From IMG/VR virus record IMGVR_UViG_2744054627_000002: DNA of 9,356 nt; one strand, given 5' to 3'. This document shows positions 1-7,627 of the stretch, in pieces. Below the pieces are notes generated by a model. It did not search any database. It saw nothing but the letters and a program-made list of their open reading frames with translations, and was not told where the DNA came from. The DNA comes from a virus (lineage: Duplodnaviria > Heunggongvirae > Uroviricota > Caudoviricetes). The first letter of the stretch is position 1. Every line of letters starts with the position of its first letter. The position numbers and the translations under genes were made by a program.

Positions 1-383
1 TTTTCAGTTGCTGAATAAACGCGCCGGGAATACGACGGTTTCCCACCACAAGCACGCTGCCGCCACCTTTCAGGGATGAACGCTGCCCTTTTACGACGCC
101 TGCGGCGGGACAGGACAACCCGCGCATTACCCAGCTTGATTACGGGCAAATCCCCCGGTTAACCCTGATTCTGGCCTGCGGATTTTGACCGTGGCCCTTT
201 TCAGCCTGGCCCTTTCCTTTACCAGTTTCCGGCGTACCTTTGTCTCACGGGCAACCTGTGACGCAGACTGCGATATCGCGGATGACGCAACGCGGTTAAT
301 GGCCATTGCGGCGGCACCAGGCACCGCCGTTTGCTGATACGGCTGAGGTTTTCAACGGCCTGCTCAAGACCTTTTATGGCCAT
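1..383 (-). pseudogene. Z: Tail protein gpZ, 5' partial (gene runs off the window start); frameshifted as assembled
   Basis: ATG at 383 (complement) translates to MAIKGLEQAVENLSRISK, then the frame breaks; ORF 127..324 continues VPGAAAMAINRVASSAISQSASQVARETKVRRKLVKERARLKRATVK, matching lambda gpZ from memory. First break is a T3 run at 330..332 where the protein requires four. Further one-base losses occur downstream. Confidence 0.8.
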
Positions 384-394
384 ACATCCCCCTT

Positions 395-748
395 TCAGCG
401 GCGACGGTTAACGGCAGGCGGCACGCCACGCCCAAGCCAGAGATGACAGCTTCCGCCATCATCCGGCGAAACCCGGTCTATCCAGAAGTTTTCCTCACCG
501 ATGGTCAGCGTGTCTCCACGCCGCAGCTGCCGCACCTCATCAGTCCGGACAAACAGGGACGGGCTGGAGCCTTCAACGCGCACGCCCTGTCCGGCATAGC
601 TGATATTTTCAGGGTCATCAAAAACACCACGTATCACAGCACCGGACTGCTCACCGGATGTCATGGTGGCTGACGTTCCCATGTACCCGCGTATCGTTTC
701 ATCGGCGCAGGCAATGGCAGCATCGAACAGGTTATCGAAATCAGCCAC
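395..748 (-). CDS. FII: Head-tail connector (head completion) protein gpFII, 117 aa, intact
   Basis: ORF 395..748 translates to MADFDNLFDAAIA...GRGVPPAVNRRR, essentially lambda FII full length; sits 11 nt after the FI stop. Confidence 0.9.
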   Translation of the reverse strand: MADFDNLFDAAIACADETIRGYMGTSATMTSGEQSGAVIRGVFDDPENISYAGQGVRVEGSSPSLFVRTDEVRQLRRGDTLTIGEENFWIDRVSPDDGGSCHLWLGRGVPPAVNRRR

Positions 749-759
749 AGCGCCTCCCG

Positions 760-3933: not shown

Positions 3934-5508
3934 TCTTCTCCTCCTCTGTTGATTGTCGCAGCCCGGATTCAAATGCCGCAGCCGCCCAGGCGGGTGGTTT
4001 AAGACCGGCTGCACGACGCTCCATCGTTTCACGGACCTGCTGGGCAAAATTTCCTGATAGTCGTCACCGCGTTTTGCGCACTCTTTCTCGTAGGTGCTCA
4101 GTCCGGCTTCTATCAGCATCACCGCTTCCTGAACTTCTTTCAGACCATCGATGGCCATACGACCGGAGCCTATCCAGTCGCAGTTCCCCCAGGCACTGCG
4201 GGCTTCCTGAAAGCTGAAGCGCGCTTTGAAGGTAACGTCACCACGCGGCGAACGATGGCCTCTTCCAGCCAGCACAGAAACATCTGGCTCGCCTGACGGG
4301 ATGCGACGAATTTCGCCGCCCATAAAGTGCGCCCACGACTCGTTCGCGCTGGCCCGTGCCGTGGAGTAGCTCATCTGGGCGTAATTCCGGGAAAGCTGCT
4401 CATACGAGACACCCAACCCGGCAGCGATATACCGCAACAGTGACTGCTCAAAACGGAGTAGCCGTTATCCGTGTCCTGAGCCGTCTGCAGGTTCAGTGAG
4501 TCACCCGGCATCAGGTGCGGCACTTTTGCGCCTCCCAGCCGGACCGGTGCTGCGGCGTAATACGCGGCAATTTCACCAATCCAGCCGGTCAGCTTGTCCC
4601 GCTGCTCCTGACTGTTCGCGCCCAGAATAAAATCCATCGCTGACTGCGTATCCAGCTCACTCTCAATGGTGGCGGCATACATCGCCTTCACAATGGCGCT
4701 CTGCAGCTGCGTGTTCTGCAGCGTGTCGAGCATCTTCATCTGCTCCATCACGCTGTAAAACACATTTGCACCGCGGGTCTGACCGTCCTCCACGGGTTCA
4801 AAAACGTGAATGAACGAGGCGCGCCCGCCGGGTAACTCACGGGGTATCCATGTCCATTTCTGCGGCACCCAGCCAGGATACCCGTCCTCGCTGACGTAAT
4901 ATCCCAGCGCCGCACCGCTGTCATTAATCTGCACACCGGCACGGCAGTTCCGGCTGTCTCCGGTATTGTTCGGGTTGCTGATGCGCTTCGGGCTGACCAT
5001 CCGGAACTGTGTCCGGAAAGCCGCGACGAACTGGTATCCCAGGTGGCCTGAACGAACAGCTCACCGTTAAAGGCGTGCATGGCCACACCTTCCCGAATCA
5101 TCATGGTAAACGTGCGTTTTCGCTCAACGTCAATGCAGCAGCAGTCATCCTCGGCAAACTCTTTCCATGCCGCTTCAACCTCGCGGGAAAAGGCACGGGC
5201 TTCTTCCTCCCCGATGCCCAGATAGCGCCAGCTTGGGCGATGGCTGAGCCGGAAAAAGACCCGACGATATGATCCTGATGCAGCTGGATGGCGTTGGCGG
5301 CATAGCCGTTATTGCGTACCAGATCGTCTGCGCGGGCATTGCCACGGGTAAAGTTGGGCAGCAGGGCTGCATCCACACTTTCACTCGGTGGGTTCCACGC
5401 CCGCAACTGCCCACCAAATCCGCTGCCACCGCCGTGATAACCGGCATATTCGCGCAGCGATGTCATGCCGTCCGGCCCCAGAAGGGTGGGAATGGTGGGC
5501 GTTTTCAT
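3914..5508 (-). pseudogene. B: Portal protein gpB; about seven one-base frameshifts as assembled
   Basis: Four ORF fragments tile lambda gpB in order: 5101..5508 (MKTPTIPTLLGPDGMTSLREYAGYHGGGSGFGG...HIVGSF), 4748..5104 (MMIREGVAMHAFNGELFVQATWDTSSSRL), 4371..5000 (MVSPKRISNPNNTGDSRNCRAG...DTDNGYSV), 3622..4437 (RYIAAGLGVSYEQL...KARFSFQEARSAWGNCDWIGSGRMAIDGLKEV...YQEI). Breaks are in runs at about 5254..5258, 5016..5018, 4447..4450, 4311..4320 (two), 4224 and 4046..4049. Span 1595 nt against 1602 expected. Confidence 0.85.
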
Positions 5509-5710
5509 ACATAAAATCCTGCAGGTCCCCTGCGTCGCTGTGTCATGCCGGTCTGCACTTCCAGCTCTGCAATATATTTTTCAGGTCAGACACGGAAGTG
5601 GCCGTAAACTCCACTCGCCGTCCGTCTTTCTGTACTGTTGCCACCCGTTTACCTGTCATCAGGTCATGCAGTGCCGCACGGGCAGCGGCAAGTTCTTCCT
5701 GTCGCGTCAT
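5505..5710 (-). pseudogene. W: Head-tail joining protein gpW; one frameshift as assembled
   Basis: ATG at 5708..5710 (complement) overlaps the A stop; product [43 protein letters not shown], then the frame is lost at a T5 run 5577..5581 where K-K-Y-I needs six A on the coding strand. Span 206 nt against 207; too short to appear in the ORF track. Confidence 0.8.
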
Positions 5711-7627
5711 TCATCCTCTCCGGATAAGGCACGGGCGTAATCTGCCAGTGTTTTCTTGTTGGTTGCTGCACCATCTTCTTCCTGCAGGCTCGCCAGCAGT
5801 GCACTGAGATCCAGCTGCCAGCGGGAAATACTGATGCGCAGCGCCGCCAGCGCATAAACGAAGCAGTCGAGTGCCTCATTGCGTCGCTTTTTGCTGTCCC
5901 ACAGTATTTTTTCCTGCCATCCACCCATTTTCGACCTGCTCTTCAGCCGTCAGCTGCTGCGCTTCGGTCAGATCAAAAATATCCGGGTTATTCGGGAAGT
6001 GAACGGCACCGGGAAGCGGTTCATCCCCTTCCGGCGTCAGTGTGAAGCGGTTATAAATCTGCTCTTTCGCGGTATCCGTACCGATTTCGGTAAGGTAAAC
6101 CCCGTTTTTGTTTCGCTTACGTGGCATGCTGGCCACCGGCTTTCCGTAGACGGATGCCCCTTTAATGGGATCACCCGGAACAGCCCATGCTTTTCGAGCG
6201 TTCATACACAATGGTCGGGTCAATCCCGCCAGTATCCCAGCAGATACGGGATACCGACATTTCTGCACCATTCCGGCGGGTATAGGTTTTATTGATGGCC
6301 TCATCCACACGCAGCAGCGTCTGTTCATCGTCGTGGCGGCCCATAATAATCTGCCGGTCAATCAGCCAGCTTTCCTCACCCGGCCCCCATCCCCATACGC
6401 GCATTTCGTAGCGGTCCAGCTGGGAGTCGATACCGGCGGTCAGGTAAGCCACACGGTCAGGAACGGGCGCTGAATAATGCTCTTTCCGCTCTGCCATCAC
6501 TTCAGCATCCGGACGTTCACCGATTTTCGCTTCCCACGTCTCACCGAGCGTGGTGTTCACGAAGGTTTTACGTTTTCCCGTATCCCTTTCGTCTTCATCC
6601 AGTCTTTGACAATCTGCACCCAGGTGGTGAACGGGCTGTACGCCGTCCAGATGTGAAAGGTCACACTGTCAGGCGGCTCAATCTCTTCACCGGATGACGA
6701 AAACCAGAGAATGCCATCACGGGTCCAGATCCCGGTCTTTTCGCAGATATAACGGGCATCAGTGAAGTCCAGCTCCTGCTGGCGGATGACGCAGGCATTA
6801 TGCTCGCAGAGATAAAACACGCTGGAGGGGTCATCCGGCGTCCATTTGAGGCCAAACGGCGTCTCTTTATCGCCAAATTTAAGGTACTGCTCCTCCCCGC
6901 AGTGCGGGCAGGCAACATGAAAACGCATAAAATGCGGGGATTCACTGGCTGCACGCTCAATCTGACAGGTGCCTCTCACTTTTGGCGTGGAGCCACGGAT
7001 GGACTTTGGCCATACCGAGCCTTCAATACGCTTATCGCCCAGGAACGTCGGAGAGCCTTCCTGTTCAATATCCTCATCAAAGGCAGCAAGTTCATCATAA
7101 CCCGCCACATCCACTGACTTTTCACGGTAGTTTTTTGCCGCTTTACCGCCCAGACACCAGAAGCCACGCCCATTGGAAAAACGCTTCATGGTGAGCGTGT
7201 TATCCCGGTGCTTCTTGCCATACCACGGGGCCAGCGCCAGCAGCGACGGAATATCACGGATGGTCGGCTCAACGTGGGTTTTCATAAAGTTTTCGGCATC
7301 ACCATCCGTTGGCAACCAGATAAGGGTGTTGCGCTGCTTATGCTCTATGAAGTAGGCATAAACACCCAGCAGCATTTTGGAATAACCGACACGGGCAGAC
7401 TTCACCACATTCACCTCGCGGATGTAGTCGCTGCCCATCGCATTCATGATGGCCCGCTGAAAGGGCAGTGTTTCCCAGCGCCCTTCCTGGTATGCGGATT
7501 CTTTCGGGAGATAGTAATTGGCATCCGCCCATTCAACGGCGGTCTGTGGCTCCGGCCTGAACAGTGAGCGAAGCCCGGCGCGGACAAAATGCCGCAGCCT
7601 GTTAACCTGACTGTTCGATATATTCAC
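5707..7627 (-). pseudogene. A: Terminase large subunit gpA; five one-base frameshifts as assembled
   Basis: Fragments 6557..7627 (MNISNSQVNRLRHFVRAGLRSLF...IVKDWMKTKG), 6171..6560 (NTTLGETWEAKIGERPDAEV...TIVYERSK), 5876..6361 (...IKGASVYGKPVASMPRKRNKNGVYLTEIGTD...TAEEQVE) and 5707..5928 (...KILWDSKKRRNEALDCFVYALAAL...ARALSGEDE) tile lambda gpA. Breaks at 6584..6586, 6191..6194, 6167..6169, 5928..5931 and 5907..5912. Span 1921 nt against 1926 expected. Confidence 0.9.

Follow-up and report, generated by a model that had tools for sequence, protein, structure and literature searches.

E. coli commonly carries cryptic lambdoid prophages whose morphogenesis genes are inactivated; their hallmarks are large deletions, IS insertions, nonsense mutations, and absent modules. 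In Ion Torrent data, homopolymer errors increase with run length and give rise to false frameshifts and pseudogenes, and this platform is over-represented among genomes kept out of RefSeq for 'many frameshifted proteins' (PMC12046094; PMC3917457). The DNA analysed here, hereafter the window, is the entire 9356-bp contig LSBR01000745.1 of the NCBI draft assembly GCA_001641855.1. On the minus strand lies the module cos-Nu1-A-W-B-C-D-E-FI-FII-Z of a lambda-like Escherichia (E. coli) prophage and, taken at face value, the contig would be annotated as a badly decayed prophage in which seven morphogenesis genes are broken. The findings presented here point to normal genes and a wrong consensus: we infer from the assembled sequence that 26 homopolymer runs have very probably been under-counted by one base each in the draft consensus, as a sequencing or assembly artefact and not through gene decay.

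The window is essentially a normal lambda-type head and DNA-packaging module that includes the start of Z. The genes follow the lambda-type order from Nu1 to Z with cos adjoining, and their protein families match (PF07471, PF05876, PF20454, PF02831, PF05136, PF01343, PF02924, PF03864, PF14000, and PF05354); an Rfam scan of the window returned zero matches. At the 12 bases that align with lambda cosN, the window has GGGCGGAAGGCG where lambda has GGGCGGCGACCT. The features of the window are as follows.

1..383, minus strand: 5' part of tail gene Z, truncated by the contig end; five losses, residual runs C 86-88, T 89-92, C 152-156, T 183-186, and T 330-332.
395..748, minus strand: FII, head-tail joining, 117 aa, intact (PF05354).
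760..1155, minus strand: FI, DNA-packaging protein, 131 aa, intact; one codon fewer than lambda FI at 927/928.
1197..2221, minus strand: major capsid gene E; one loss, T5 to T4, at 1303-1306; repaired, 341 aa and no stop.
2222..2274, no strand: D-E intergenic spacer; two A7 runs, each now A6, at 2222-2227 and 2234-2239; the 2234 loss is private.
2275..2606, minus strand: head decoration gene D; one loss, T6 to T5, at 2314-2318; repaired, 110 aa, equal to a protein on 780 contigs.
2616..3933, minus strand: C/Nu3, S49 protease and scaffold; two losses, C 3518-3521 and C 3626-3628; repaired, 439 aa, equal to a protein on 372 contigs.
3914..5508, minus strand: portal gene B; seven losses, A 4046-4049, T 4225-4227, T 4311-4313, C 4319-4321, A 4450-4453, A 5017-5019, and A 5253-5257.
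5505..5710, minus strand: head-tail joining gene W; one loss, T6 to T5, at 5577-5581; repaired, 68 aa, equal to lambda gpW, on at least 1000 contigs.
5707..7627, minus strand: terminase large subunit gene A; five losses, T 5907-5912, T 5928-5931, G 6167-6169, T 6191-6194, and C 6584-6586.
7602..8147, minus strand: terminase small subunit gene Nu1, 181 aa, intact (PF07471).
8148..8400, no strand: cos region upstream of Nu1; two losses, A5 to A4 at 8164-8167 and, relative to E. coli PEC41, A6 to A5 at 8192-8196.
8462..8941, minus strand: two small intact phage ORFs, 8462-8677 (71 aa, phrog_4280) and 8717-8941 (74 aa, phrog_2571), in a stretch identical to PEC41.

Set against 26 intact relatives, the window lacks a single base at 26 sites and has no inserted base anywhere (P = 1.5e-8 if deletions and insertions had equal odds). 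Global alignment of positions 1-8365 to the lambda-type phage 4W gave 169 substitutions and 29 gap bases, all of them losses in the window: the 26 single-base losses and one in-frame 3-base codon in FI. Coding sequence holds 22 of the deletions (Z 5, E 1, D 1, C 2, B 7, W 1, A 5), with FII, FI, and Nu1 free of one-base losses, while two of the four non-coding deletions fall in the D-E spacer and two in the cos region. The earlier note on this DNA had reported about two dozen frameshifts across the head genes, a figure borne out by the alignment, and since the shortfall of each gene span exactly equals its number of losses, the per-gene counts it gave (A 5, B 7, C 2, D 1, E 1, W 1) are exact. 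Its example runs also agree with the comparison to relatives (T 5907-5912, six bases versus seven; T 2314-2318, five versus six; C 3518-3521, four versus five). It had placed the losses in runs of 2 to 7 bases, which is right for the homopolymer context but not for the lengths, as all 26 deletions lie in runs that are 4-7 bases long in intact relatives (3-6 after the loss). Similarly, coding losses do occur within positions 1-7627, the extent it had proposed, but the phenomenon reaches past 7627 because two losses, at 8164-8167 and 8192-8196, lie in the cos region upstream of Nu1. The insertions, non-homopolymer indels, and nonsense substitutions that it had named as refuting evidence were looked for by alignment, and none were found; the same alignment to relatives revealed no larger deletions and no IS elements in the window. 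Three candidate non-homopolymer indels relative to lambda, at 927-930, 4453, and 8197, were rejected, all being natural alleles in closer relatives. The FI codon is missing from 13 of 19 relatives and is therefore a natural allele, and at site 4453, 19 of the 26 relatives have an A5 run that arises from a synonymous GTT codon for Val.

The losses depend steeply on run length. Bases in runs of at least four make up just 6.1% of the total, and the chance of all 26 deletions falling there is ~0.061^26. No base was lost from the 1653 runs of 2-3 bases, in comparison to 9 of 93 runs of four (9.7%), 8 of 27 runs of five (29.6%), 5 of 8 runs of six (62.5%), and 3 of 3 runs of seven (100%); one apparent run-of-1 case in this tally, site 4453, was later resolved as the A5 allele. 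Every affected run of six or seven bases is shortened by exactly one. Non-coding DNA is struck as well as coding DNA, although somewhat less often than its run content predicts (4 deletions observed, 7.9 predicted). For the intact genes, the probability of escaping a hit is 0.57 for FII, which has just three runs of at least four bases, and 0.27 for Nu1. The density of deletions along the window is nevertheless uneven, with 2 in positions 6585-9356 against ~9 predicted from run content (P ~0.002), and to explain this sparseness something more has to be assumed, for instance deeper coverage of sequence that other prophages share.

When one base is added back at each deletion site, Nu1, A, W, B, C, D, E, FI, and FII are full length without internal stops, and pN/pS relative to a lambda strain is 0.11. 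After repair, D, C, B, W, and A agree at every residue with full-length proteins that other E. coli assemblies encode; B (533 aa) is exactly WP_336492167.1, HAX7400850.1, and EPO6114902.1, and A (641 aa) exactly matches a protein on at least 1000 contigs. Repaired E, which has a private T35S change, is without an exact match among known proteins. E excepted, repair thus restores known proteins, and the underlying sequence is that of an otherwise normal, selected allele. The broken alleles, by comparison, appear to be largely peculiar to this contig. For 25 of the 26 deletions, not one of the 16-26 relatives covering the site has the loss. As a control, 23 of the 26 relatives have no private indels, whereas the window has 25. 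The exception is the A6 allele at 2222-2227, which is common to two IMG/VR contigs and may be genuine. None of the 26 relatives has any of the 22 coding frameshifts, and in all of them each protein is read from one frame. Among 153 billion gene positions, the frameshifted 356-aa fragment of A occurs in LSBR01000745.1 only and has no NCBI protein accession, and a 44-mer spanning the 5907 and 5928 deletions had no exact matches in viral, genome, or metagenome contigs. Substitutions are scarce: eight are private to the window, six of them synonymous, and positions 5750-9356 (3.6 kb) show seven deletions and no substitutions relative to the E. coli PEC41 prophage. When positions 1-5800 were searched segment by segment with megablast, the best matches among 5,426 complete E. 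coli genomes reached just 98.2-98.7% identity; this left part is a fine-scale mosaic, for which there is no single near-identical reference. The private M215V allele of the portal protein was not found in an IMG/VR scan.

How could such a pattern arise in a draft genome? The reads would come from a platform that gauges run length by the amplitude of a signal or by dwell time. The most likely source would be Ion Torrent or 454, given that the draft has at least 745 contigs, with an unpolished long-read consensus as the alternative. On such platforms, one-base-short calls become commoner as the run lengthens and, at modest depth, the short call prevails, which would have left the deposited consensus short by one base at 26 homopolymer runs; the reads themselves would be expected to disagree with the consensus at these sites. 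Given that each within-gene under-call shifts the frame, gene callers report A, W, B, C, D, E, and Z as fragments.

Several explanations would instead take the short runs as real. Genuine pseudogenisation, i.e. a defective prophage that acquired head-gene frameshifts under relaxed selection, is in keeping with how common cryptic lambdoid prophages with dead morphogenesis genes are in E. coli, and with the short run at 2222-2227 being present in two other contigs. Replication slippage also prefers homopolymers, increasingly so with run length (PMC8510543). We nevertheless consider decay very improbable. Neither a mixed lesion spectrum nor relaxed selection was found: insertions, nonsense codons, larger deletions, and IS elements are all absent, at most eight private substitutions (six synonymous) accompany 26 indels, and pN/pS is 0.11. 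The PEC41 comparison, with its seven deletions and not one substitution in 3.6 kb, and the striking of all three seven-base and five of eight six-base runs by exactly one base speak against it too, as do repaired proteins that are exactly living alleles and a broken allele confined to one assembly. Slippage in a mismatch-repair-deficient (mutator) host would account for the homopolymer specificity, given that in mismatch-repair-defective E. coli the indel rate climbs exponentially as homopolymers lengthen (PMC8510543). In such strains, however, 30,061 substitutions were recorded versus 5,324 small indels (PMC8510543), and at this ratio of ~5.6 to 1, 26 indels predict ~150 new substitutions, where at most eight private ones are seen and none in the 3.6 kb holding seven deletions. 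Saturation of the six- and seven-base runs would furthermore take many generations, with substitutions accumulating meanwhile, and 26 deletions to no insertions would be unexpected from slippage. The ratio of substitutions to indels led us to reject a mutator origin, which we regard as very improbable.

Functional recoding, by which programmed ribosomal frameshifting or transcriptional slippage would still allow full-length head proteins to be made, has a precedent in the lambda tail proteins G/GT, which use a programmed -1 frameshift and whose genes lie outside the window; slippage is also possible on homopolymers. Yet the 22 sites are spread over seven genes with up to seven per gene, none is conserved in the 26 relatives, and four like lesions sit in non-coding DNA. 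Programmed frameshifting was ruled out on this lack of site conservation, and recoding as a whole is the most far-fetched of these readings. Were the 26 short runs real, a strain process would have had to produce only one-base homopolymer deletions in the head module without substitutions, which we judge to be highly unlikely; an unusual slippage-prone state of replication or repair, or targeted inactivation of a resident prophage, would be examples, and the prophage would then have been silenced in one burst. An under-counted consensus remains our preferred explanation. Assembly error rather than decay was also the interpretation offered by the earlier note, and it is supported by the restriction to deletions, the restriction to homopolymers, and the recovery of known proteins on repair. 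Its description of an intact, possibly inducible prophage, by contrast, goes beyond what a 9.4-kb contig with the head and packaging module only can carry.

The frameshifts are very probably no real feature of the prophage, and their value is practical rather than biological. They correspond to ~2.8 false deletions per kb, a rate that, if genome-wide, would affect most genes of the source assembly and make GCA_001641855.1 unfit for pseudogene counts, prophage-intactness calls, cgMLST, and pan-genome work unless polished. The same analysis offers flags that can reveal such artefacts in the absence of reads: the ratio of deletions to insertions, the response of losses to run length, the number of private indels relative to private substitutions, and the exact-match look-up of repaired proteins.

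With respect to known systems, the window resembles the lambda head and packaging module in the order and orientation of its genes and in its Pfam families, and once repaired its proteins are full length as in lambda. Nucleotide identity to lambda-type phages is ~97.6%, with a mosaic divergence of ~2%. The DNA past cos (8366-9356) is unlike lambda and instead resembles PEC41 and the Stx-phage phiSTEC1575-Stx2k. The cryptic prophages DLP12, Rac, and Qin share with the window lambdoid genes in the E. coli chromosome that are annotated as pseudogenes; the window is unlike them in that every lesion is a one-base homopolymer loss and the repaired genes equal living alleles. Both indel directions are reported for Ion Torrent data, whereas the window has deletions only, and the uneven density of deletions along the contig is a further difference from Ion Torrent and 454 artefacts. 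What the window does share with artefacts of Ion Torrent, 454, and unpolished long-read data is single-base homopolymer indels at a length-dependent rate (PMC12046094; PMC3917457) and, as in Ion Torrent and 454 drafts affected in this way, many contigs, fragmented genes, and an excess of apparent pseudogenes.

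The head and packaging module of a lambda-type phage lies in this window and has lost 26 single bases, each from a homopolymer run; in all likelihood these losses are an under-calling artefact with no real biology behind them. By megablast, the left arm of lambda-type phages (the matches include Lambda, 4W, DE3 and 2H10) is ~97.6% identical to the minus strand of window 1-8365, and the Stx phage phiSTEC1575-Stx2k matches window 1-9286. Annotated relatives give the order Z, FII, FI, E, D, C, B, W, A, Nu1, then cos. In an exact-protein look-up, the truncated terminase fragment, which has no NCBI protein accession, had a sole carrier in the whole collection, contig LSBR01000745.1 of the NCBI draft assembly GCA_001641855.1; the window equals this contig over its entire 9356 bp, in reverse, and the numbering implies at least 745 contigs. 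On this contig the head genes are called as fragments, all with the expected Pfam families (Phage_Nu1, GpA_ATPase, GpA_nuclease, gpW, Phage_portal_2, Peptidase_S49, HDPD, Phage_cap_E, Packaging_FI and Phage_attach).

Global alignment with the reference phage 4W revealed 169 substitutions and 29 gap bases, all of the latter being losses from the window: three make up one FI codon and 26 are single-base losses. At 927/928, FI lacks one codon relative to its lambda and 4W counterparts, and this short form occurs in 13 of 19 relatives; judged from these sequences, the difference is a natural length polymorphism that keeps the frame, and no error.

Bases lost per feature (window coordinates)
1-383: Z (partial), 5
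395-748: FII, 0
760-1155: FI, 0
1197-2221: E, 1
2222-2274: D-E spacer, 2, both in A7 runs
2275-2606: D, 1
2616-3933: C/Nu3, 2
3914-5508: B, 7
5505-5710: W, 1
5707-7627: A, 5
7602-8147: Nu1, 0
8148-8400: cos region, 2

The alignment with 4W and a panel of 26 intact relatives (19 IMG/VR contigs plus seven annotated records from phages or E. coli) bear out, with small corrections, the one-base homopolymer losses described in an earlier note. Its break counts per gene were exact, the shortfall of each gene equalling the losses listed here, and the span it proposed (1-7627) contains all gene losses and ends before the two in the cos region. Sixteen to 26 relatives cover each site, and 25 of the 26 losses are seen in none of them; the remaining one, A6 at 2222-2227, is common to two IMG/VR contigs as well and may be a genuine allele. 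Site 4453 (C) was considered as a non-homopolymer loss and rejected: a synonymous GTT Val codon gives an A5 run in 19 of 26 relatives, so that here, too, a run was shortened by one. Against the panel, the window has no private insertions. Private indels are absent from 23 of the 26 relatives; they occur in three reference loci of the panel (the IMG/VR contigs L022, three deletions and three insertions, and L023, four insertions; and L016, one insertion), either as assembly mistakes, perhaps, or as true variation.

Loss rates, counted per run after the lost bases had been put back, climb steeply with run length.

Losses by run length (site 4453, an A5 allele, counted apart)
Runs of 2-3: 1653 runs, 0 losses, 0%
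Runs of 4: 93 runs, 9 losses, 9.7%
Runs of 5: 27 runs, 8 losses, 29.6%
Runs of 6: 8 runs, 5 losses, 62.5%
Runs of 7: 3 runs, 3 losses, 100%

Since only 6.1% of bases sit in runs of four or more, the location of all 26 losses in such runs is not due to chance. Twenty-six deletions versus no insertions has P = 1.5e-8 under equal odds, and loss rates are roughly alike across all four bases. FII, FI and Nu1 are intact because their runs are few or short (chance of no hit from run content: 0.57, 0.67 and 0.27, respectively).

Left of ~5750, the window differs by ~2% from the prophage carried by PEC41 (NZ_CM168023.1), a swine E. coli, versus no substitutions rightwards, and is a fine mosaic with alleles from different relatives; this pattern suggests that a recombination junction lies close to where W meets A. 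The 12 bases that align with lambda cosN (8330-8345, minus strand) read GGGCGGAAGGCG, a variant also present in PEC41. The lambda cosN 12-mer is GGGCGGCGACCT; no site in the window matches it, even when one mismatch is tolerated, and the cohesive-end sequence thus probably differs from lambda's. Past cos, window 8366-9356 has no likeness to lambda and carries two small intact ORFs (phrog_4280 and phrog_2571); comparison with PEC41 identifies the final ~56 bases as the 3' end of a gene for an M15-family metallopeptidase (endolysin), truncated where the contig stops. This arrangement also lies beside the packaging genes of phiSTEC1575-Stx2k.

Could the losses be real mutations? Among biological conditions, mismatch-repair deficiency favours homopolymer indels the most, and mutation accumulation in E. 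coli with this defect yielded 30,061 substitutions versus 5,324 small indels (PMC8510543). At this ratio, 26 real slippage indels should leave ~150 new substitutions. At most eight substitutions in the window are unseen in the panel, six of them synonymous, and over 5750-9356 the window has seven one-base deletions and no substitutions relative to the PEC41 prophage. The two private non-synonymous changes are M215V (B codon 215, window 4868), which is present in three other public assemblies and therefore real, and T35S (E codon 35, window 2119), which was found nowhere else and may reflect either a rare allele or an erroneous substitution. Decay of a cryptic prophage would entail a mixed lesion spectrum and relaxed selection; we tested for both, found neither and rejected this explanation. 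Insertions, non-homopolymer indels and nonsense codons, which the earlier note had named as contrary evidence, were looked for in the window and not found, and neither was a larger deletion or an IS element. Recoding was likewise rejected, as none of the frame-breaking sites is conserved in any relative.

With one base put back at every site, the reading frames of Nu1, A (641 aa), W, B, C, D, E, FI and FII are open throughout, with no internal stop codon. The repaired genes look selected: pN/pS for divergence from 4W is 0.11, as under ordinary purifying selection. Full-length identical proteins exist on contigs of other E. coli assemblies for repaired D (780 contigs), C (372), W and A (at least 1000 each) and, after seven restorations, B (three); an exact look-up among proteins of other assemblies found none identical to repaired E. 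Non-coding runs also lose bases, so selection on genes has no part in the pattern. The substitution-free deletions, the repaired genes and proteins and the non-coding hits together support the earlier note's reading of assembly error, not decay.

Most likely, the source reads came from a base-caller that under-estimates the length of homopolymers, and coverage was insufficient to correct this bias, allowing short runs to enter the consensus. Ion Torrent error rises with run length, causing frameshifts and false pseudogenes, and Ion Torrent genomes are over-represented among RefSeq exclusions for 'many frameshifted proteins' (PMC12046094); in one such genome, >400 apparent pseudogenes fell to 64 once curated (PMC3917457). 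With its 745 or more contigs, the draft fits Ion Torrent or 454, as inferred platforms, better than long-read assembly. The losses are unevenly spread (dispersion over 1-kb bins, P ~0.015): window 6585-9356 has two deletions versus ~9 expected from run content (P ~0.002), a density ~four times below the rest of the contig, and past 8197 there are none versus 4.6 expected. Matches to the window number a median of two per E. coli genome. Higher read depth over sequence common to other lambdoid prophages of the genome is a possible cause and would explain this unevenness.

In practice, our analysis serves as a warning about assembly GCA_001641855.1 and also offers a read-free way of recognising homopolymer under-call artefacts. 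The module itself belongs with the head and packaging modules of lambda-type phages, and its losses belong among the homopolymer under-call artefacts of draft assemblies.
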